Shown: positions 1,751 to 25,629 of the stretch, in pieces
Position numbering within the stretch: the first letter of the stretch is position 1
Layout of the letters: every line of letters starts with the position of its first letter
DNA from: Massalongia carnosa
Taxonomy: Eukaryota
NCBI GenBank assembly: GCA_965645245.1
Contig: OZ287076.1
Coordinates: 1,116,001-1,180,000, forward strand
Reading direction: 5' to 3'
DNA: 64,000 nucleotides
The notes under the pieces: generated by a model
What the model saw: only the letters and a program-made list of their open reading frames with translations
Told to the model about the DNA's origin: nothing
Database searches by the model: none
Made by a program: the position numbers and the translations under genes

Positions 1751-3274
1751 CTAGCTACCATCTCTAGAACCAATAAGGGCACCAAGGTTTTCAGCCACAG
1801 AACCCTTACCCGCTACCATGCGACTGTCAACCTCTTCGCGTTTTTTTGTGACGAAGTAACGGCAATAGCAACTTCCCTCAGCCCAAACGGGATACGTATG
1901 CGGGGGACAATGACTTGGGCAATCCTCGATCAGGCCGAACTTGGAACCCGCGACGATACTGGCGGACCTTGGGGAGAATGGAACGGTGATTTGGCATTCG
2001 CATACTCCGTTGACGGACACGGAAGTGAAGCGTGGGGGGCATACCCGTACCAAGCAGTCATCCAGTGCAGGAAAAAGGGGTAAATTTTGGCGCCTGTTAT
2101 CCGCAACGAGTTTGCGTGATGCAAACAGAGGGGATGCTGTAGCGGTGGAAGTGGGAATGACCTTGGCATGAGCGGTAGCGGTAGAAGAAAGGATGGATTT
2201 TGCAGGATCGGAAGCTTGGCCTGTAAATGGAATGGAGAGTGGGATAGGTGATGAAGGGGATTTTCCGGCATCATTGCCTGTATTGTTGTTGATGTCGCTG
2301 CCGAGACAAGAACATGCTGCTGAAAAGCAAACTAAAACTTGATGAGGCGGACATGGACTTCTAAAGCTGACACCTTTCTTAACGACGGGGAGAGCATTTG
2401 GAAGGTTAACGGGAGAAGTGGTATTCCCCCCCCCAATGCCATCGCCAGTGCAGAAACACTCTCCTCGAACACAGAGAAAGACGCCACCGTCTGGACATGA
2501 GATGACCTTGGATTCGTTGACTTTGAAATCAGTGCCAATTTGACGTTTCTCATTTCCACGGAGGTCTCCGCAATGACAAACCCCGTTGTTGGATAGGAGA
2601 ATCTGGCCAGCGTGACATCTGCAAAACGCAAGTTTGTCATACGCAGCCGGGGCTTCTCGCTTAGGGAAATGGTCATCAATGCAATGACATTTCCCTCCAT
2701 CAAATCTGGGGAACTGAGTGCCTGGGCAAAAACAAATGGCTTCTGCTACTGCTACAAGAGCAACATCACGTTTAACCCCACTAAAAGGTTCGTCAACGCA
2801 TTGGCAGTCTTTCCCGTAATAAATCGCAGTCTGGCTCCCGGGGCAGAAGCAGCTTGCATTTTTTGAGCTGATTGATGTGTCGCGCTTGGATTGATCATTC
2901 TCGATGCCGTTGCGCTTTAAAACAGTAATTGGAATGCGAAGATCGTCATCTGTGGTGATGCTATCAGCCTTACGTATATTTCATCCAGCAACGAAGTTTT
3001 ACACTTGTCTGTGTTGGCGTGGTAGAACCCGGGATCCGGGATCCCAGTAAACGGGATTGAACCTTTGCTACTGTTAATTTTTACAAGCTTAAACCCCAAC
3101 GGTCTCATTATCTCGACCATGATATCAAGATAAGAATCACAAAGTTTGGTCTTGAAGAAGAAACTTACGAAGGGACAGCTCAGACTTCGTAGAGGCACGT
3201 TCAGCCACGGGTGCTGTAGTACACAGAACCGCAAACCATGCCACCACGGTGACATGGATAAGGTGAAGCATCAT
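1751..3274 (-). CDS. Secreted Kex2-processed repeat polyprotein (~454 aa) with seven 4-Cys modules (C-x12-C-x-C core)
   Basis: ATG at 3274 in an accATG context. Exon 1 (3274-3169) reads MMLHLIHVTVVAWFAVLCTTAPVAERASTKSELSL, signal-peptide-like, then a GTAAGT donor. Exon 2 is 3062-3003, followed by a 53-bp intron at 3002-2950. Exon 3 (2949-1751) is one stop-free frame with KR-delimited Cys modules. The ORF track shows only the last 100 aa. The exon 2 acceptor (AAG) and the extreme 3' end are less certain. Confidence 0.8.
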
Positions 3275-3904
3275 GGTCAGACAGTAATCGTGTGATCAGG
3301 GCAAAGGTGCCAGTATGATCGAAGATGGCGTGCTATGGTAGATGACAAGGCGTGTAGGATGAAGATGAGAGAAGGAAGAAGACGAAGGAGGACACAAAGA
3401 TGGATAAGAGGATAAGAGAACAAGAGAATAAAGAAGGGTTTTGAAAGAAAGTTCCAGCAGGGGTTCGGATGAATGTTGTGTGAAATGTGAATTTCGGCAA
3501 CTATATCCGAAGAAGCCCTAATTCACCCTCATCATCACCGGCTTTGAGTACGCCAGGCATCAGAGGGCGAAGAAGACCGAAACTGAAATACTGCAGGCCC
3601 ATTGATGTGACACCGGGAAGCATGTGAAAGGAATACTTAAAGCGAAGTTACTCAAAAAGTTGTAATCATTTGAAGATTGTCTCCAGCCGTAAGCAATATT
3701 TCTTCATACAATCGATAGCTTCATTAACATGTACTCGTAGTGATCTTGGCGATAACATGTTATGTTCTTTGCGCTTCGCAAGGCCGATAACTGATTAACC
3801 CCAAATGCCATAGGCAGAGCGTATGATGACGGACCAATCTTATCGTAAATCAAGATCCCATCAAAGCAAATGCTTCATGTCTACCTCTTGACTACCTAGA
3901 CATC

Positions 3905-5977
3905 TCATCCTAGATAATCCTCTAGCCGGCGCCGTAATCCCATCCAACCTCTCCAACCCATCAATGTTGCTTGCTTCGTTCCTTGAATTTGGGGCAAGCT
4001 TCGTAACCTTTCTACTGGCCTCTGGTTCTGCACTTGAGCTTCCGTAAACCAGTTTCCGTGTAGGCCATATGGCACTCTCTGTGGCAAGTAAACCCGAGCC
4101 ACAACATCTTCCATGTTGTTAGCGTCAATAATCCACAACTCGCTCCGAGCAAAAGCGTGACACTCTCCAGTAGAATCTAGCTGAGATTCGTCAAAAACAT
4201 AGGTAAGAAGCCAGCCATCGTCCTCGCTGACTCCGTTCTCACGAGGCACAAACCGGGATTCTTGGGCATACCAGCCTTCGGGCATTTTAAAAACTTTGAT
4301 GGGATCTTTAGGGTCATTGCTTTGGAGCACTTCTGCTACGTTCCTCTCGTCGACGCACCCTATGATTTGGATAGGAGGATCTTTCATGCCCTTAGCGATG
4401 AGTGTTTCGGCATCAATCTTCACCAGCGAATTGATTTTAACCGCTCTAGCAAGGGCCGCCCCGAACGTAGCACCAGCTACAGAGCAGCCATAGATGTACT
4501 TTGCGGGGGACATGCATACAGAATCACGTAAAGACGGGAACTCGAAAGGGATGGCGGACAAGGCCCACTGGTGCAGGATCTTATTCGAGTGTATGTTATC
4601 TTTAGTAGTATAAGAAGGCACTGCATTTGCTAAGCAAAATTGGTAGTAATAGAGACGGCACTGTTCTTCTTCTTTTTGATGAAAAGGAACTTCTCCCAGT
4701 GGAATAGGTGCAGCCAGGTCACCGGCACTGTAAACAAGAGCAGCAGAAGTCAAGCGACATGCCAGCATATTTATAACCGGAACATTTTTTTCCTTTGGAG
4801 GCACATCAGCAACGCTTGAATCCCATGAGTTGGCAGTGTGAAAAATGCAGCAGGCATTCGTCTCGAACCATAGGATTGTATCAGGCTCATACCGGGGAAA
4901 TATACCAAAACGCGAGCGACCCCTCGGATCATATGATACTACAGGTAGGTTTTTTACCAGATTCAGGGGATCCAATGATAGCGGAAGATCCATGATTATC
5001 GTGTGCATGCTAGAAACTCCAAAATCATGCATCATCTTAGCTGACCGAATGCCAGGGACAGGTAAATTTAGTATAGGCTGTCGGATTTGCAGAGACTTCC
5101 CTGGCTCCTTGCTCGAGGAAGGGGGAATAATCGAGTAGTGGACATACGGTGGTAAAAAAGTACTGTGGAACAGAATGAGCTCGGACGTCTCTGGGTCTAC
5201 TCTAGGCTAGAAAGCGTCAATGTCAAGCTTCCCATGGCATGCGAAGTTTTGCCCACATGCGCAGTTGTCCATTCTTTCATAAAGCTAAAAAAGCCATTTC
5301 CCCCAAAGCCAGAACGTACGTTAGGTCCTTTCTCCCCCTCGCATTTGTTTCCATTGAACCACCCAACTGTCTCAAGTCCAGGTAGCGAAATTCGGATTGG
5401 GACTCCACTTTCACACGTTGCCAGCGCCCGGCCATCGTGATACAAAATTGCGGTATTTGCGACACTGATTTTATTGATTACTTGTCGTGAACCGGGAAGA
5501 TTCGACAATAACACAAGCAGTATGGTTCTCAGGATTTTTAAAACGATCGTGATCAGGGAACTCAACGGATTGACAAGGGTTGTGATACTGGGCAAAATTG
5601 GTGTCTTGAGAGATGGGGAGGTGACAGATGAGAGAAAGACATCGGTGAGAATATACTGATTGACAAACTCCGGCTGAATCCCCCCAGTATCAAGGCACCG
5701 AAACGCCACACCACTGAGCATTCCATCGCCATCAAACCAGTGGGCAGTGCGCCCTTGAGTCTCGTTCATCACAGGGTTTCCCCCATTTCGAACGTATTCT
5801 CCACCAGCCAGCTCCAACGGGATTGAACCTGTAAATTTGCATGGAGTAAGTGATTGTACGTGATGCAGTGGGGCAAAGTTCCCTGAGAGATATCTAATGA
5901 ATATGCTCAGCATCCAATAGTTGTACTATATGATGTGCTTACGGATGAGGACAAGATTTCTTGTGATCTGGCGGCAT
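3905..5977 (-). CDS. carX: Carotenoid cleavage oxygenase (retinal-forming, RPE65/CCD family), CarX-like
   Basis: Three exons, with introns at 5942-5894 and ~5256-5207. Reads MPPDHKKSCPHP|YLSGNFAP, then YVRNGGNP and HWFDGDGML. The four Fe-binding His are in WTTAH, MMHDF, IFHTAN and YGLHG; EDDGWLL is also present. Transcribed divergently from carRA. Confidence 0.92.
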
Positions 5978-6692
5978 ACTCAAGACCTTGAATGATCACG
6001 ATGCAATAGGCTTAGGCAGAATGCTTCGTTCATGGGGCGTCCTTGCCATCAATGTGGTCACCCAACTCATGCCAAATAGCTAAACAATGGGTATAATCGT
6101 GCTAAACCACATTCGGAATGAAAGGGGCGGTTTAGCACAATTAATAAGGCCTGAGTCTTGTGATTCTTGTGATTCCTAGCGCATCTCGATAAGGCTTCTC
6201 CATAACGTAACTATTTGACGTCATGATTTCTTGTTTTCTATACGAGTTCGAACTGCAGGGATTGTCGGGAGGCGAGGATTTCCGACCGCGATCTTGTGTA
6301 ATGCCGCTTTTACTGATTTCATTCTCGCTTTTGCAAGGCTGGAGCTTGGAAGCTTCAGCAAATGAGAACATGGCAAAAAAAACTCCACCAAAAGGTTGGA
6401 TGATTGGATCTAGGATTTGTCGTAAAGAATAATAATCTCCTTCAGACTAGAATTTCCTACATCCTGAGGAAAATGTAATTGCTTGTGATAATCTTCTCTG
6501 AATACGCGCCGAGGTCCCCGCAATTTCCTAGATCAAGGCACGGAGCATTACCTCCGTATGTGTGACATCGTCAGTTGCGTACCTGATTTATGCAAAATTC
6601 TCCCCGCTTTTCATCAAACTTCCGCCCTTGTATCCCCGAAGCTCACCATCATGAATGTCCCAATTACTCTGTTGCATTCATGAAGTTCAGAT

Positions 6693-8718
6693 ATGGGTTA
6701 TGATTATGCCTTGGTGTAAGCCCATTTGCTCTGAGTTTGTCGTACCTAGCGCTTGCTAACAATTGACATCGCTTTAGCCATCTGCGATACACGATTCCTC
6801 CCGCCATAGTGTTGACTTACTGCTACCGCCCGTTATGTACAGCGCTCGATGTCTACAAAATTCTTTTTCTGATTACTGTAAGTCAATGGATGGCTGTCAA
6901 GATGTCAGTAGCGTTGACCGATTTGCTCTTAGATTGCTGTGTTCTCCACAACGCCTTGGGACTCGTACCTAATTCGCACAAAAATATGGAGCTATCCACC
7001 CAATGCAATAATTGGCCCTACAGTCTTCCGCATTCCGGCAGAGGAGTTCTTTTTCTTCGTCATTCAAACTTATAACACCAGCCTGCTGTATCTAATCCTT
7101 AATAAACCCACATTCCACCCAACATATCTTCGCGGTGAAAAATTGCAACATGATGGGAAGCGACTTCGGCTCTGGAGGGGGGTGGGGACCTTCATCATGA
7201 GCTTTCTGACTGCCGGGGGCGCTGTCATGGCTTCAAGCAGGGGAAAGGGGCTCTACATGGGACTGATCCTAGTTTGGGCCCTGCCTTTTGCCCTCGTCCT
7301 ATGGTATGTATATCTGTCTTCCATGAGCGAAGGTTTACTAAATTTATTAGGAACCTTGCGTATCAATTCATTATCCAGCTCCCGCTTACAGGTTGTTTTG
7401 TTCCTATTGCATTACCCACATTGTATCTATGGATTGTGGATACGTTAGCCTTGAAACGAGGGACCTGGGTGATTGAATCAGGAACCAAACTCGAAAAGCA
7501 CATATGGGATGGACTAGAAATTGAGTATGAGAATTCTCTTCTGATTTCATATCCCAGGCTAACCGTGATGCAGAGAAGCTGTCTTCTTTCTTGTAACAAA
7601 TGTACTTATCATCTTTGGCCTAATCGCCTTCGATAATGCCTTGGCTATTCTGAATGCTTTCCCTCTCTTGTTTCCTGCAGTACCATCTCTCCCATCGCCT
7701 ATCCTCCTAGTTCGAGCGCTTCTTACACCGACCCAAGATTATGACATGGATCGTGTAGTAGGGCTACAACAAGCACTAGCTCGGCTCAAGGCAAAAAGCA
7801 GAAGCTTTTACCTAGCAAGTAGTGTTTTCGAGGGTAGGTTACGTGTTGACTTGATTGTACTGTAAGTAAATAGTCAAAGATAACAACACTACGTGTACTC
7901 ATAAGTTTCCTAGCTATTCATTTTGTCGTGTGGCAGACGACCTCGTCGATAATGCATCTTCGATCTCCGAGGCCAAGCATTGGATAGCTCGGCTTACGAA
8001 GTATCTTGATTTTTGCTACTCAGATCCGGCAAAGGGAAGCGTACGCGATACGTTCATACGTAATACATTTCCGGATAGCTGTCAAGCTGCGTTGCTCTTG
8101 CTTCCCACTTCTTATCTCTCTTCAACGCCATTGTACGATCTTTTGAAAGGATTTGAGACCGACCTAGAATTTTCGTCATCCAGCAACCCATTCCCCATAC
8201 TCGATGAAGCTACTCTGCAAACCTATGCTTCTCGAGTTGCCGGCACTGTAGCTGAATCGTGCCTGGAACTTGTCTACTATCATAGTAATGCAAAGATCGA
8301 AAAATCCAAGCGGCAGGATATTGTACGTGCTGGAGGTCGCATGGGAATTGCTTTACAATATGTCAATATATCTCGAGATATTGCTGTTGATGCGTTGAAC
8401 AACCGTGTCTATATTCCTACAACCTGGCTTAAGAGGGTAGGACTCACACCGCAAGATATCGTGTCTGATCCTAGAAGCTCCGAAGCCGAGTCGTTGAGAC
8501 AGCGGCTTTTGGATGTTGCTATGAAGATCTATGATGAAGCAAAGAACGCAATTGAGCAACTTCCTATGGAGGCGCGAGGTCCTATGCGAGTCGCTGTGGA
8601 AAGCTATGTTGAAATCGGAAGAGTTCTACGAACGCCAGGATATCGAGTCAAGGCCGGAAGAGCAACAGTTCCAAAAATAAGAAGATTAAAGGTTGCTTGG
8701 CATGCTTTGAGACGGTAA
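6693..8718 (+). CDS. carRA: Bifunctional lycopene cyclase / phytoene synthase (CarRA / Al-2)
   Basis: Starts [16 protein letters not shown]. Cyclase motifs [20 protein letters not shown] and [16 protein letters not shown]. Synthase motifs [24 protein letters not shown] and [10 protein letters not shown]. Several short introns; stop TAA ends at 8718. Confidence 0.95.
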
Positions 8719-8938
8719 CGTTCTTGAAGGGAGGGGCTGGGTATGAATGAAAAGTTAATAGGAGCATCGGCGTACATTGTGATACCATTCTGCATGAAGG
8801 CGTATTCGCTTTATTTAATCGTTATGTAAATAGTATATGTAAATACGGTTCTAACTTTCTTGACGCTTCCTTTTGATATTGATATTGAACAAGAAAGAGA
8901 GAAAAGGCATTTTAAACTGGGCCGTCTAAGAACTCTTA

Positions 8939-9016
8939 TCCGTGCCACCCACATCGCTCGGGTCGCCTCGCTTAGTGCTAGCCAGCCATACAACCCAACT
9001 CAGCCATACCACCCAA
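8939..9016 (+). repeat. Left TIR of the Fot1-like element
   Basis: TCCGTGCCACCCACATCGCTCGGGTCGCCTCGCTTAGTGCTAGCCAGCCATACAACCCAACTCAGCCATACCACCCAA, with an internal duplicated CAGCCATAC(A/C)ACCCAA subrepeat. Confidence 0.95.
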
Positions 9017-9068
9017 TTCGTCAAATTTCAAGTATTTACCTTTCAACAATTTATCATCCATCACCACC

Positions 9069-10714
9069 ATGCCTGAATCATATACCGAAATCGAAAGTCG
9101 CATTACGAAGGCTATTGACGCCTTAAACACGCGGAAAAACGCGAAACTTCGAGCAATTGCACGAGAATTTGAAGTGCCTAGAGAAAGACTTCGTTCTCGA
9201 TATCATGGGGCCCCATCTAAATCAGAGATACGAGGACTGCATACTAGACGTCTGAAACCGGATCAAGAGTCGGCCCTATATATGTATATCAAGAAACTGG
9301 ACTCTTTGAACATACCTGCCCGATTGCACATGGTGGAAATCGCAGCAAATTCTATTCTTCGTCAAACAGCTCCTGTTTCGGAACCGCCTCCTTTGATCGG
9401 GTCGCATTGGACCAAGATATGGTTAAATCGTCAGCCCGATTTTTTCAAAGTTCGACGAAAACCTCTAGCTGTTGAGCGAAAAAATGCGCATGATTTAGAG
9501 TTGCTAATGGCTCACTTTACAAAATACAAAGAGGTTATTGATGAGTATGGCATAGATCCTCAAGATCAGTGGAATTTTGATGAAACCGGGTATCGCATTG
9601 GCATGGCACGTAATGATTGAATAGTCAGTGCATCAAAAGACCGAAGGATCTATAATAACGATCCATCAAACAGAGAATCACTGACCGGAGTGGAATGTAT
9701 CAATGGGACTGGACGAGATATTCCCCCTATGCTGATTTTGACTGGTATCAGCATTCTCGCTCCCTTTTTCCTCAACGATCTTAGCAATGATGTTCTTATT
9801 ACTACTGCTGAATCAGGTTCTTCAAATGACTGGCTGGCCTTGCAATGGATTAAACACTTCGATAAACACTCTCGAAACATTCGAAAGGGGGCATGGAGAC
9901 TGTTGATTATGGATGGACATGGATCTCATCATACTCGTGAGTTTTTAGAGTATTGTGACGCTTATAACATCATTCCATTTGGATTACCATCACATACCAC
10001 TCACTTATTGCAACCGCTTGATGTATGTGTGTTTCAGCCTTTAAAGCATTGGCATTCCGAGGCTGTCAATGAGGCCATTCAGAACGGTGATGAAACGTTC
10101 TCGAAAGTGGAATTTCTAGCTACATTCAACACCTTTCGGGCAAAGGCCTTCAAATCAACAACGATTACGTCTGCATGGAGAAAAACCGGCCTAATTCCAT
10201 ATAATTCAGAGGTGGTTCTTCAAAAGGTCAGAGAGAGTTTACCACCCCCCCGCGAGATTACCCTACCCTCGTCGATTCAATCAATACAAGAGACCCCTAG
10301 GACTGTCAGACAATTGAGTACAGTAGCCGCAGACATTATGATGAATTCCCGTTGTTCGGATGAACTTACACAAATGATAGCAAAATTTGTAAATGGGGCT
10401 GTTTCGGAAGTCCGAAAAGGAGAACTTCTCGAACAACGATGGATCAACAAACAAAGGCCAAAAAAGTTCGAAAAGCACGCAAACGAGAGAGCAATAAGGT
10501 ACTTCAGATTGGGGGCATACTTACTGCACGAAAGGCTCGATCAATGATTCGTGATAGACAGAATCAGGAGGCTCAGAGGGAGAAGGATCGAATGATCGCA
10601 TGGGAAAAGCGATATTCTTTGGCACTGGGCAAGGTTGCTAAACAAACCAAAGCTCATCGAAAGTTGAAGATGACCAAAAGTATGGATAGCATAAAAGATA
10701 GGAGGAAGTACTGA
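9069..10714 (+). pseudogene. Fot1-like DDE transposase with an in-frame stop and a frameshift
   Basis: HTH-like N-terminus and motifs WNFDETG, LLIMDGHGSH and HLLQPLDVCVFQPLK. In-frame TGA at 9618-9620 (9069 and 9690 share a frame). A 1-nt frameshift near 10438 leads into ...KVLQIGGILTARKAR. Confidence 0.9.
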
Positions 10715-10759
10715 AGGAATTGTTGAAAAAAACCCCGATGTATGTAGAGGAGTAGCATT

Positions 10760-10837
10760 TTGGGTTGTATGGCTGAGTTGGGTTGTATGGCTGGCTAGCA
10801 CTAAGCGAGGCGACCCGAGCGATGTGGGTGGCACGGA
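10760..10837 (-). repeat. Right TIR of the Fot1-like element
   Basis: Reverse complement of 8939-9016 with one mismatch, followed by TA. Confidence 0.95.
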
Positions 10838-10928
10838 TACTAGCTCGACGCCTCTACTTTATTTTGAAATATTTCTCGGCATCGACATGTGAGATTTAAG
10901 CCCCTCCGTTCTCCCCAACGGCTTAGCA

Positions 10929-12775
10929 ATGAGTGTTAAACAACGCCAGAAATCTGCAATAATTGTGGGTATGCTTCATTTATCTTTGTTGCCGTCCGAG
11001 TGGATTTGACTGATAATGCATTTGCCCAGGGGCTGGTGTCGGCGGAGTGGCTGCAGCTGCTAGACTTGCAAAGGCCGATTTTAAGGTTACGGTGTTTGAG
11101 AAGAATGATTTCACTGGCGGCAGATGCTCCTTGATAAATCATGAGGGCTACGTGAGTGATCTGGCCCATCAAGAAAAACCCAATGCTAATAGATATCCAG
11201 CGTTTCGATCAAGGCCCCTCCCTCCTTCTCCTCCCTCATATGTTCCGTGAAGCCTTTTATGATCTAGACACGTCCCTTGAGGCCGAGGGCGTGGAGCTCA
11301 TGAAATGTGAACCCAATTACAACCTCTGGTTCAGTGATGGCGAGTCTTTTGAGCTTTCCACAGACATGGCGCGTATGAAAGTTGAGGTTGAGAGATGGGA
11401 AGGCAAAGATGGATTTGAACGTTACTTGAGCTTTCTTCAAGAAGCCCATCGTCATTACGAGCTCAGCGTCATGCATGTCCTTCAAAAGAATTTTACTTCC
11501 TTTCTCTCCATGGCACGACCTTCCTTCCTTCGGCATCTACTGACTCTCCACCCCTTCGAAAGCATCTACTCTCGAGCTTCGAGGTATTTCTGGACCGAGC
11601 GTCTTCGCCGCGTGTTTACGTTTGGGAGCATGTACATGGGAATGTCTCCGTTTGACGCCCCAGGTACGTATTCTTTGCTCCAATATACGGAGCTCGCGGA
11701 AGGGATCTGGTACCCCAAGGGTGGATTTCACAGCGTCATTGGTGCACTTGCCCGGGTCGGGGAGCGGTTAGGGGTGAAATACCGACTTTCAACGCCAGTT
11801 TCAAAAATCCTATTAGACTCAAGACAGCGTCGCGCAACAGGTGTGACCCTCGAAAACGGCGAGACGATCATGGCCGACATTGTCCTCGTAAACGCTGATT
11901 TGGTCTACGCATACAACAATCTTCTCCCCTCGTCCTCTACCGCAGAGTCCCTTCAAACCCGTTCCGCAAGCTGCAGCTCCATCTCCTTTTACTGGGCCAT
12001 GAATCGCACCATCCCGGAGCTAACGACCCACAACATATTTCTTGCGGACGACTATCGCGACTCTTTCGACAATATCTTCAAGAAACACTTGATCCCTACC
12101 CAACCCTCCTTCTATGTCAACGTCCCTTCGCGCATCGATCCCACCGCTGCCCCGGAAGGAAAAGATGCCATCGTCGTCCTTGTTCCTGTCGGCCATCTCC
12201 TAAACGAAACCACAAGAACCGGAATTGAAGCACTTAGCACGCAAGACTGGACGGCCATGGTCTCCAAAGCCCGCCACACCGTTTTTTCCACCATCGAAGC
12301 CCGCACCGGCGCGCGCGGCCTGCAGGAAGCCCTAGTGAAGGAACTCGTCAATACCCCCGTAAGCTGGAAGGAACGCTTCAACCTTGACAAAGGTGCCATC
12401 CTTGGCCTGAGCCATAGTTTCTTTAACGTGCTTTCGTTCCGGCCGTCAACCAGGCATGCCAATATACAGGGCTTGTATTTTGTAGGCGCGTCGACGCATC
12501 CAGGGACTGGGGTGCCGATTTGTCTTGCTGGGGCTAAGCTCACGGCCGAACAGATATTGGAGGGGGAGGGGGTGCCAAAGCCTTGGGGGAGGAAAAGTAA
12601 GGGTGGGGGTGGAGAAATGGGAAAAGGGGGGAGGAGGGAAGCGCGGGAGATCGATCGGATGCAGGCGCTACCGCTAATTTCCCTTGTTCACATCGCTCTT
12701 CTGTTTTTGGTTTTGCTCCTAGCAGGTGCAATAGGATACGGATCCGGGTTTAAGGCATGGGGGGTTTTGCGGTGA
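10929..12775 (+). CDS. carB: Phytoene desaturase (CrtI-type, CarB / Al-1)
   Basis: MSVKQRQKSAIIVG|AGVGG dinucleotide-binding motif, then EKNDFTGGRCS, RFDQGPSLLL, GSMYMGMSPFDAPGTYSLLQYTE and YFVGASTHPGTGVP, with a hydrophobic C-terminal tail. Two 5' introns. Confidence 0.95.
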
Positions 12776-23621: not shown

Positions 23622-25629
23622 CAGTGAACCCTGGCTATAACGAATCGATGATTCCATGAAAAAATTCGTTATAACCAGTTTTCGTTATAACCTTAATTTC
23701 TACGAAAACATCTCATTTTCTACCTAAAATAGCTGGTAATGGTCATCTGCTTTCTAGTATTGATTTCCCCATTTAGCATAACCTGCTCCGAAGCATTCAA
23801 ACGTTGAATCAGATCGATGTCGCCATCTTCCTGTTGCTCATGAAATGTACGTAGTATTCTCAAAGCTTGAATAGCTTCAGAGTATTTCACTGTAGGTTTG
23901 ACGATCTCATCTTCATCCGATTCTTCAATTTGACCCTCGGCGTATGCATCCACAATAGTATCAAGAATGTCATCATCATCATCATCCTCAATGATTTCTT
24001 CCGCGGGATTGAGACATCGTTCAATACTTATGACGTCTTGAATGCGATCATTCTTCTTCAACTGCTGCAATGTAGTGCTCATCTCTTTTACTAGTTGATT
24101 GTAGTCTTCCGTCTCTTGATCAACTGCCTTCGACCAACCCTTTTCTTTCGTCCAGCCCATTTTCTTCGCTTGCAATTGCGTAGTAGGTCCGTAATTTGCT
24201 GAGAATACCAAAGACTTAATCCAGCAGTTGACGATAGTAGCGGGTTTGACGTCATACTCCCAAGCAGTCATTGACCAACGAATAGCTTGCAAAATATGCA
24301 TGTTCTTAAAAGGATCTTTGTCCGCATCATACTGATCACATAAAAAGGCTAGCCATTTTCGCTTGTAGTGAGCCTTAAACGTCTTGATGATGCCTTGATC
24401 CAATGGTTGACAGATGCTTGTAGCATTGGCAGGAAGAAATATCACTTTAACGTTTGATTCAGGATTTGATTCTGAATACTGACGATAGCCAGCAACATGA
24501 GCTGAAATTCCATCGACTAGCAAGACTACTTTGCGATTTGTTTGACGACTAAACCATTGCAAATACTCTTGAAATAATACTCCCGTCATCCATGCCTTTC
24601 TATTGCTTCGCCATAGCATATTCAGGTTGCTAACGTTGATCCCCTCACGCGTAAAACAGCGAGGTGTTTTTGCCGTACCAATGAACAAAAGTGGAAGTTT
24701 ATGAGTGCCCGTTGCATTAACGCAAAAATTAACGGTTATTCTAGCTTTCTCAAGCTTCAATCCAGCAGATGAAGCTGTAGCCAACGTTCCATTCGGATTC
24801 ATCTTCCAATACAAGGCAGCCTCATCCATGTTGTATACATCGTCTTGATCGTACGGAGCCAACTTAATTCTCAAGTCCCTCAATTCTTCTTCCACTGTCT
24901 CCTTGTCAACTGATGCCGCTTCTCCATGTCGAATACGAAAGGAGATGGAATGACGAGCTTTAAAAGCATCTAGCCAACCGTTAGAAAATTTGGGCATTTC
25001 TTCATGAGAGTATTGAGGAAGTCTTGTCCAGATTTTCTTTGCCATCTCCTTCAATAACTCTCCCGTCACAGTCGCCTGCTTTGTCTGCATTCGTTGTTGC
25101 CATTCGAAAAGAGCCGCTTCAAGATCCGGCCAAAAAGAAGCTTTCAATCTTTTGATATCAGGTTGAAATGTGTATTTTCGAGAAAGAATATCCGATATTG
25201 TAGATTCCGAAGGTGTATGACCGAATTCAGCTTCAAACCAGACTTGAAGAGCTTTGCCGAAAGGTCTTTTAACGAAATTAGTCTGAACATACTGACGAAG
25301 CGCGTGTTTTTCTGCATCTGTGATAGGTCGACGACGTTTTTTGGAGGAAGAATTCATGATGAGTTGTTGGTTATTAAAAGGATATGTTATCTATCGATAG
25401 GATGCGCAGCATGTAGTACTACGTATCAAGAATTTTTATCAGCTAATCCTAAAAGGGTAATTGCCGAGGTCTAGTTATAGCGAATCACTAAGAAACTTTC
25501 TAAAATTGCTTACGAATTCGCAATAGGCCGACATTCGTTATTTTACATACAAGAATCGCTCATCCATGAAAAAAATTCGTTATAAGCCGAATTCGTTGGA
25601 AAAAGGTTCGTTTTAACCAGGGTTCACTG
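23622..25629 (-). mobile_element. Tigger/pogo-like (CENP-B family) DNA transposon (2008 bp), apparently intact
   Basis: TIRs CAGTGAACCCTGG(C/T)TA(T/A)AACGAA (23 bp, 2 mismatches). TA duplication at 23620-23621 and 25630-25631. Subterminal TTCGTTATAA repeats, with TCCATGAAAAAA(A)TTCGTTATAA near both ends. Confidence 0.95.
23720..25357 (-). CDS. Tigger/CENP-B-like DDE transposase (545 aa)
   Basis: Uninterrupted ORF with CENP-B-type HTH (DLEAALFEW, FSNGWLDAFKARH), catalytic motifs YNMDE, VLLVDG and QPLDQG, and an acidic tail ending KQMTITSYF. Confidence 0.93.
   Translation of the reverse strand: MNSSSKKRRRPITDAEKHALRQYVQTNFVKRPFGKALQVWFEAEFGHTPSESTISDILSRKYTFQPDIKRLKASFWPDLEAALFEWQQRMQTKQATVTGELLKEMAKKIWTRLPQYSHEEMPKFSNGWLDAFKARHSISFRIRHGEAASVDKETVEEELRDLRIKLAPYDQDDVYNMDEAALYWKMNPNGTLATASSAGLKLEKARITVNFCVNATGTHKLPLLFIGTAKTPRCFTREGINVSNLNMLWRSNRKAWMTGVLFQEYLQWFSRQTNRKVVLLVDGISAHVAGYRQYSESNPESNVKVIFLPANATSICQPLDQGIIKTFKAHYKRKWLAFLCDQYDADKDPFKNMHILQAIRWSMTAWEYDVKPATIVNCWIKSLVFSANYGPTTQLQAKKMGWTKEKGWSKAVDQETEDYNQLVKEMSTTLQQLKKNDRIQDVISIERCLNPAEEIIEDDDDDDILDTIVDAYAEGQIEESDEDEIVKPTVKYSEAIQALRILRTFHEQQEDGDIDLIQRLNASEQVMLNGEINTRKQMTITSYFR

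Follow-up and report, generated by a model that had tools for sequence, protein, structure and literature searches.

We analyzed a 64,000-nucleotide stretch of Massalongia carnosa DNA (hereafter the window; assembly GCA_965645245.1, contig OZ287076.1, positions 1,116,001 to 1,180,000 of the forward strand, the first letter being window position 1). Between positions 1751 and 3274 the minus strand carries a gene, very probably real to judge by its open frame and its homology, for a candidate secreted polyprotein of seven modules with four cysteines each (4-Cys modules). The first-pass annotation of the window had reported that the main frame of this gene is hidden from the open reading frame (ORF) track, which is correct. 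The minus-strand stop-to-stop frame 2980..1754 comprises 409 codons and is closed by the stop TAG 1753..1751; within it, in-frame ATG, GTG and TTG codons are limited to TTG 2053, GTG 2020, ATG 1819 and GTG 1798. Since there is no in-frame start before 2053, a start-dependent ORF track displays just the tail. We infer that an open frame of 409 codons would not be expected by chance in DNA of 47% GC. Two upstream exons with a signal-peptide-like leader, also proposed at first pass, complete the gene:

3169..3274, minus strand: exon 1, 106 nt, with ATG 3274-3272 and an A at -3; encodes a hydrophobic, signal-peptide-like N-terminus and the start of a pro-region
3063..3168, minus strand: intron 1, 106 nt, GTAAGT...AG (AG 3064-3063), with a TTAAC branch-like site
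3003..3062, minus strand: exon 2, 60 nt, pro-region with a conserved SIPFTG motif
2950..3002, minus strand: intron 2, 53 nt, GTAAAA...CTGAT (branch-like)...CAG; the frame is restored
1751..2949, minus strand: exon 3, end of the pro-region, seven 4-Cys modules, tail and TAG 1753-1751

Joined in a script, the three exons gave 1365 nt in frame, coding for 454 amino acids (aa). A pyrimidine-rich tract lies upstream of exon 1, at about 3340-3440. The model was compared by local blastp with two annotated orthologues, each deposited as a 'hypothetical protein' and identified by cluster look-up: MCJ1464918.1 of Pseudocyphellaria aurata (P0002) and MCJ1261901.1 of Lobaria immixta (P0010), both species being lichen-forming fungi of the Peltigerales. 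The scores were 123 and 120 bits, respectively, at 37% identity over 221-227 aligned residues. Both alignments begin at residue 1 to 8, cross the exon 1/2 junction and continue into the modules, and both orthologues keep the N-terminus and the SIPFTG motif. At the exon 1/2 junction the alignment is ungapped, with LR|SIPFTG set against HR-SIPFTG in P0002 and YR-SIPITT in P0010, and tblastn matched residues 27-58 of P0002 to window positions 3069..2971. What supports the exon 2/3 junction is the reading frame, the splice signals and an alignment to P0002 that is ungapped and of equal length. An alternative in-frame splice model, with the acceptor after AACAG and the donor two bases earlier, was rejected: it loses the SIPFTG match and scored 98 bits against P0002 vs. 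123 bits for the favored model. In a local codon-usage score the coding frame was the best of six (0.048 vs. -0.037 to -0.426), a weak signal that lies below the 0.11-0.22 of control genes.

Four sequence runs that cover the gene are genomic-type contigs without joints at the introns, and they are uninformative on expression. Breaks in two of them (runs X3 and X4) at 2484-2513, 2867-2896 and 3036 have loose ends starting with GATC, which suggests origin from a proximity-ligation (Hi-C-type) library and not biological joints.

The N-terminus of the 454-aa product has a highest 12-aa Kyte-Doolittle mean of 2.27 (residues 8-19), followed by small residues. Beyond it there is no other hydrophobic 19-aa stretch and no transmembrane segment. 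The peptide strings quoted at first pass agree with the translation, and the modular 4-Cys architecture proposed there was found again, in seven modules here and in the relatives described below. Units are delimited mostly by the dibasic pairs Lys-Arg (KR), Lys-Lys (KK) and Arg-Arg (RR):

2882..2917, minus strand: end of the pro-region, with KR 2917..2912, a 10-aa spacer and a second KR 2887..2882
2768..2881, minus strand: unit 1, residues 79-116, CxC-x12-CxC, KR end 2773..2768; hairpin predicted by AlphaFold2 (AF2) at P0001 residues 40-51
2657..2767, minus strand: unit 2, residues 117-153, CxC-x12-CxC, KR end 2662..2657
2543..2656, minus strand: unit 3, residues 154-191, CxC-x12-CxC, EA-PA start resembling a Ste13 signature, KR end 2548..2543
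2375..2542, minus strand: unit 4, residues 192-247, C-x7-C-x4-CxC with a Gly-rich tail, KK end 2380..2375
2090..2374, minus strand: unit 5, residues 248-342, C-x7-C-x4-CxC, a Ser/Thr/Pro-rich linker of about 80 aa, an internal Arg-Lys (RK), RR end 2095..2090
1838..2089, minus strand: unit 6+7, residues 343-426, C-x4-C-x12-CxC and C-x3-C-x12-CxC without a dibasic site between them, KKR end 1846..1838
1754..1837, minus strand: C-terminal tail, 28 aa, without Cys, hydrophobic end or any feature like a glycosylphosphatidylinositol (GPI) signal

Aligned by reference, all seven modules share the frame C(P)-x12-CxC, with the fourth cysteine at -2, -4 or -5 or inside the loop. They are heterogeneous, with four cysteine patterns and 19-42% identity (31-42% among units 1-3), and the protein has four N-x-S/T sequons.

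Relatives in lichen-derived sequences

Searched exhaustively with HMMER (E up to 0.001), a collection of 1.84 billion representative proteins returned eight matches, of which seven were true relatives (E 2.8e-29 to 7.3e-5), and the best identity was 51%. P0004 (631 aa, E 6.5e-20) was discarded, being a low-complexity repeat of 60 residues in which the cysteine frame is missing. Every relative consists of 4-Cys modules in series, each with the frame C-P-x11-CxC and one further, mobile Cys, and all 28 module cysteines of the window protein are in register with them. L. immixta P0010 contains four near-identical 38-aa units, each starting with DA-LP and ending with KR. A paralogous subfamily (P0005, P0006, P0008 and P0012) amplifies the module-6 type, C-x4-CPPRF...CxC; in P0012, KR stands at all six module boundaries. 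The contigs of P0005 and P0013-P0019, which belong to this CPPRF paralogue, are only 1.2-2.4 kb long and encode 316-318 aa. Their transcript-like size hints that the CPPRF subfamily is expressed in some of the sequenced lichens.

The first-pass annotation did not recognize the family, and our searches gave it no name either. Pfam returned no family at threshold for P0001 (best FeThRed_B, E 0.14) or for any of 20 members. The ESM Atlas had no usable match for P0001, and its values for P0010, 0.80 to a DUF5874 cluster and 0.76 to a 'Pheromone 1' cluster, were both below lead level. Metagenome pattern scans yielded 192 and 337 pattern matches, none of which was confirmed by tblastn. The window protein had no match in a word-index protein search of limited sensitivity; the same search with a 10-row family profile found P0009 alone and missed relatives found by HMMER, so its blanks carry no weight. 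Searching the window by tblastn with eight family proteins revealed no further copies outside 1754-3069. No tandem DNA repeats were detected in the coding region, so the modules are old duplications. Our searches of the literature returned no description of the 4-Cys hairpin family. It is a small, undescribed family that has so far appeared only in lichen-derived sequences. The gene apparently went uncalled, as would be expected of a gene caller requiring a start codon inside the long exon.

It is very unlikely that the locus is non-functional, either a decaying pseudogene or a chance frame with an invented leader. The frame is unmatched in the word-index search and reaches at most 51% identity in HMMER, though a helicase elsewhere in the window is present in the protein collection at 100%, and the codon-usage score is weakly positive; these points would suit such a reading. 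They are opposed by the 409 codons without a stop, the cysteines held in register with the relatives, the N-terminus and SIPFTG motif kept in two annotated orthologues, and the intact splice signals. The same helicase is 82% identical to its counterpart in L. immixta, 81% in P. aurata and 72-80% in other Lecanoromycetes, in keeping with the window's origin in a related lichen-forming ascomycete.

Dibasic sites, predicted fold and proposed processing

KR occurs six times in the window protein vs. 1.18 times expected (P = 0.00045, 20,000 shuffles), and the reversed pair RK occurs once. Five of seven relatives tested show a KR excess at P ≤ 0.003; the values for P0002 and P0007 were 0.014 and 0.30, respectively. 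None of the eight dibasic sites in the window protein falls in a cysteine core; all are in segments that AF2 models at a predicted local distance difference test (pLDDT) below 50. Counts were made in 16 family proteins, among which near-duplicates are frequent, and in a non-redundant set of eight. In the full table KR is present at 50 of 64 module boundaries and some dibasic site at 53; in the non-redundant set the counts are 24 and 27 of 34. The eight non-redundant proteins have 38 dibasic sites in 1044 linker residues vs. two in 834 core residues. In units 1-3 of the window protein the KR has been kept 6-9 residues past the last cysteine despite their divergence.

Exon 3 was modeled with AF2 on a 20-row family alignment, and a two-stranded beta-hairpin was predicted on each of the seven modules. 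Modules 1, 2, 6 and 7 had 10-residue blocks with mean pLDDT of 68-86, and confidence was highest over modules 6 and 7, where block means reached 77-86. Every linker scored below 50, including the Ser/Thr/Pro-rich linker of unit 5. Module 2 modeled alone gave the same hairpin with pLDDT 70.8 (core 82-84).

Cutting in silico at the dibasic sites produced six Cys-bearing pieces: three of 35-36 aa and single ones of 54, 93 and 81 aa. Of these, the 93-aa piece has a Ser/Thr-rich tail, and the 81-aa piece holds two modules. The first-pass estimate of up to seven peptides was thus too high by this count, one piece containing two modules. Five of the six pieces have a net charge of -1 to -3 and a pI (isoelectric point) of 4.2-6.1, and the suggestion made at first pass that they could be antimicrobials finds no support in their charge. 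Acidic-to-neutral pieces fit a signaling, symbiosis-related, metal-binding or partner-binding role better than that of a cationic antimicrobial.

With moderate confidence we favor the reading that the gene encodes a Kex2-processed precursor releasing disulfide-stapled hairpin peptides; Kex2 cleavage, secretion and expression of the window protein are what we infer. In such a scheme the hydrophobic N-terminus would bring the protein into the endoplasmic reticulum, where each of the seven modules would fold into a short beta-hairpin with two disulfides. In the Golgi, Kex2 would cut after KR, and perhaps after KK or RR, within the flexible linkers. Kex1 would trim the basic residues, and Ste13 may trim the X-Ala/X-Pro dipeptides of unit 3. 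The predicted products would be the three one-module peptides of 35-36 aa together with the pieces of 54, 93 and 81 aa.

Several observations weigh against this reading. At three of its six module boundaries, P. aurata P0002 has Glu-Arg (ER) instead of KR, so the release of single modules is not essential everywhere; unless a different protease cuts between them, its first four modules would remain linked. Homologues lacking conserved KR sites would, according to the first-pass annotation, refute its reading, and this is partly the case in P. aurata. Within the window protein itself only three of six boundaries are KR, one is KK, one is RK/RR, and the one between modules 6 and 7 has no dibasic site. 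In two relatives a dibasic site falls within a cysteine core. The modules of the window protein are divergent, unlike the near-identical repeats that published pipelines for Kex2-processed repeat proteins (KEPs) detect. The AF2 model as a whole was poor (mean pLDDT 46.3), and the long Ser/Thr/Pro-rich linker and the four sequons would equally suit a glycoprotein that is not cleaved.

The main rival reading, which we consider possible if rather unlikely, makes the product such a protein: a modular glycoprotein, either secreted or associated with the wall, that would remain mostly in one piece. Its hairpins would serve as repeats for structure or binding, strung on flexible linkers bearing O-glycans, and at most the pro-region would be removed at KR. 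The ER boundaries of P0002, the missing site between modules 6 and 7, and the linker of about 80 aa with the four N-glycosylation sequons would be expected of it. So would the nearest structural resemblances, none of them significant, which are all to Cys-rich repeats of uncleaved proteins (EphA4, C8/C9 and EGF_C8A_B_C6). A seven-module profile searched against all Protein Data Bank sequences had its best hit in the cysteine-rich region of EphA4 (E 0.17). With a single-module model, Foldseek gave a best E of 3.8, with the epidermal growth factor (EGF)-like hairpins of complement C8/C9 at E 6-10, and VIA-align placed none of 48,161 chains at Z ≥ 2, a single module being too small for these two methods. 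Pfam reported EGF_C8A_B_C6 in one of 20 members (E 0.16) and the ephrin-receptor-like family in none. The likeness to the EphA4 and C8/C9 EGF-like repeats consists of a short beta-hairpin with C-P before it and CxC on the second strand, and in EphA4 the stretch CPPHSYSVWEG..SCTC resembles module 7. The EGF-like and ephrin-receptor repeats differ in having at least six cysteines and in their placement in uncleaved receptors. The window hairpin is EGF-like in a loose sense only, and it does not belong to the EGF-like/ephrin-receptor family. Foldseek and Pfam thus returned no significant match to a known structural repeat, a match which the first-pass annotation would have counted against peptide release.

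An intact glycoprotein does not readily account for the KR excess, which is specific to the order of the two residues, or for the presence of KR at most boundaries and of nearly no dibasic sites in the cores. It also leaves unexplained why the KR offset remained constant while units 1-3 drifted to 31-42% identity, and why KR recurs with a 38-aa periodicity in L. immixta. Further points against it are the lack of a GPI-like hydrophobic C-terminus or a transmembrane stretch and of any Pfam repeat family at threshold.

We also considered whether the modules, cleaved or not, bind extracellular metal, in which case the four thiols would not form disulfides but, with nearby His/Asp, hold Cu, Zn or Cd. 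Such a function would be compatible with either architecture and appears quite improbable. CxC motifs occur in fungal metallothioneins, and in the window protein CxC pairs stand beside His (CHC, HY..GKC, DDHF) with acidic flanks; the acidity of the predicted pieces (pI 4.2-6.1) would also suit metal binding. The oxidizing endoplasmic reticulum, however, favors disulfides. The His residues are not conserved between module types, and the mobile fourth cysteine (-2, -4, -5 or in the loop) suits a movable disulfide over a fixed tetrahedral site. No similarity to metallothionein families was found in Pfam.

Known precursor systems and neighboring genes

We compared the favored reading, a Kex2-processed precursor of folded peptides, with published KEP definitions, of which the archetype is the yeast alpha-factor precursor. 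By the definition of PMC7329392 (Umemura, 2020), a KEP has a signal peptide called by SignalP and three or more repeats in tandem, each of at least 8 and at most 100 aa and set between KR, KK, RK or RR. In PMC6339444 (Le Marquer, 2019) a KEP has a signal peptide, also called by SignalP, lacks a transmembrane domain, contains three or more similar fragments bounded by KR, RR or KK, and has at least 15% of its length in repeats. The window protein lies within these definitions for size, for transmembrane segments and for the 15% share, units 1-3 accounting for 113 of 454 aa (25%). These three units (37-38 aa) are KR-delimited and have the same cysteine frame, but at 31-42% identity they might be passed over by the identity-based repeat score of Umemura (>0.6). 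The orthologue of L. immixta has four near-identical KR-ended 38-aa units and plainly is a repeat protein in this sense.

The window protein is like the KEPs in its signal-peptide-like leader, its KR-ended pro-region and its tandem units ending in KR, KK or RR. Its units of 35-93 aa fall within the 8-100 aa range in the available text of Umemura (2020). KR followed by D/E-A and X-P dipeptides, found in unit 3 and in the Lobaria orthologue, recalls the KREA/KRDA and X-A/X-P Ste13 signatures in the available part of PMC6339444. It differs in that its units are folded 4-Cys mini-domains with a predicted beta-hairpin and not short linear cores, are heterogeneous, and include one boundary without a dibasic site. 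The main text of PMC7329392 contains none of the words cysteine, Cys, disulfide or lichen, and in the available part of PMC6339444 two-Cys pheromones are the only mention of Cys. Neither paper's supplementary text contains the terms CFCPG, CLCPG, CPPRF, Lobaria or Peltigera, and that of PMC7329392, where alone it was searched, does not contain Pseudocyphellaria, in versions of these texts that may be incomplete. The available portion of a study of clusters for ribosomally made peptides that are post-translationally modified (RiPP clusters) in lichens (PMC12048977, 2025) reports no repeated core peptides in its clusters. We concluded that the first-pass proposal of a new KEP-type system stands as far as the sequence family is new, but that it is not a new kind of system: the family falls, by its architecture, within the known KEP kind, and its unusual payload is several 4-Cys mini-domain subtypes in one precursor.

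The closest comparison is with the two orthologues, which have the same leader and SIPFTG/SIPITT pro-region, with CxC-x12-CxC units first and CP-type modules after. MCJ1261901.1 of Lobaria differs in its four near-identical KR units and in lacking modules 4-5 of the window protein, and MCJ1464918.1 of Pseudocyphellaria in the ER at three boundaries. More distant parallels exist in plants. The Impatiens Ib-AMP polyprotein yields several small 4-Cys peptides from one secreted precursor, and the nodule-specific cysteine-rich (NCR) peptides of legumes are host-made, have four or six cysteines and act on a bacterial symbiont. Both groups are mostly cationic and their processing enzymes differ; with the pieces of the window protein acidic to neutral instead, Ib-AMP and NCR peptides may serve as a working analogy only.

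As a speculation that we consider improbable, the Peltigerales of cyanobacterial lichens might possess their own class of disulfide-stapled hairpin peptides, made from KEP-type polyproteins and sent to the photobiont (Nostoc or a green alga) to control its growth or differentiation. They would be to fungi what NCR peptides are to legumes. The lineage-specific way in which modules were amplified, type A in Lobaria and the CPPRF type in the paralogue, would then be partner-specific tuning. Lichen fungi are hard to study genetically, and little is known of the secreted molecules with which they manage their photosynthetic partners. A 4-Cys family missed by start-codon-based gene calling is of interest in this respect, and it would widen the notion of KEP precursors beyond short linear peptides to mini-domains that are folded and stapled by disulfides. 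The predicted peptides of 35-36 aa have defined masses, expected to lie 4 Da under that of the reduced form, which can be searched for in thallus extracts. Peptides found there would be ready candidates for symbiosis signals or defense molecules; should none be found, the family would still be an undescribed Cys-hairpin repeat.

The surroundings of the gene bear on one more explanation, that it encodes the precursor of a dikaritin/ustiloxin-type RiPP whose cores are modified by tailoring enzymes encoded nearby. A signal peptide with KR-delimited repeats is the layout of ustiloxin-type precursors, and a DUF3328 (UstYa) gene lies on average about three genes from such a precursor, according to the available part of PMC7329392. 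We scanned the window with Pfam, using 34 ORFs of at least 110 aa that remained of 75 such ORFs after overlapping shorter frames had been dropped. No DUF3328/UstYa, tyrosinase or methyltransferase family was present among the 34 ORFs of the 64-kb window, which makes a dikaritin-type RiPP unlikely. The neighbors are instead a Ku C-terminal domain gene, carotenoid genes and transposases, and the units are folded Cys modules of 35-93 aa, not short cores. Taken together, we regard this explanation as extremely unlikely.

The Ku C-terminal (Ku_PK_bind) frame at 240-863 on the plus strand converges on the 3' end of the 4-Cys gene, with about 890 bp between the two stop codons. A carotenoid gene cluster at 3905-12772 lies directly upstream of the 4-Cys gene and contains the following frames, assigned by Pfam:

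3908-5206 and 5200-5925, minus strand: RPE65-type carotenoid oxygenase, in two exon-sized frames
7870-8715, plus strand: frame with a phytoene-synthase domain
11156-12772, plus strand: amine-oxidase/phytoene-desaturase-like frame

The layout of 3905-12772 recalls the carX-carRA-carB clusters of other ascomycetes. A degraded Tc5/pogo-type transposase at 8982-10544, with HTH_Tnp_Tc5 and DDE_1 in separate frames, is inserted between the phytoene-synthase and amine-oxidase frames. Farther along the window, the minus-strand frame 23723-25390 encodes an apparently intact pogo/Tc5-type transposase of 556 aa with HTH_ABP1_N, HTH_Tnp_Tc5 and DDE_1 domains (E 6e-15 to 6e-49). This may be an active DNA transposon; it is the second copy of its type, the first being the one that interrupts the carotenoid cluster.

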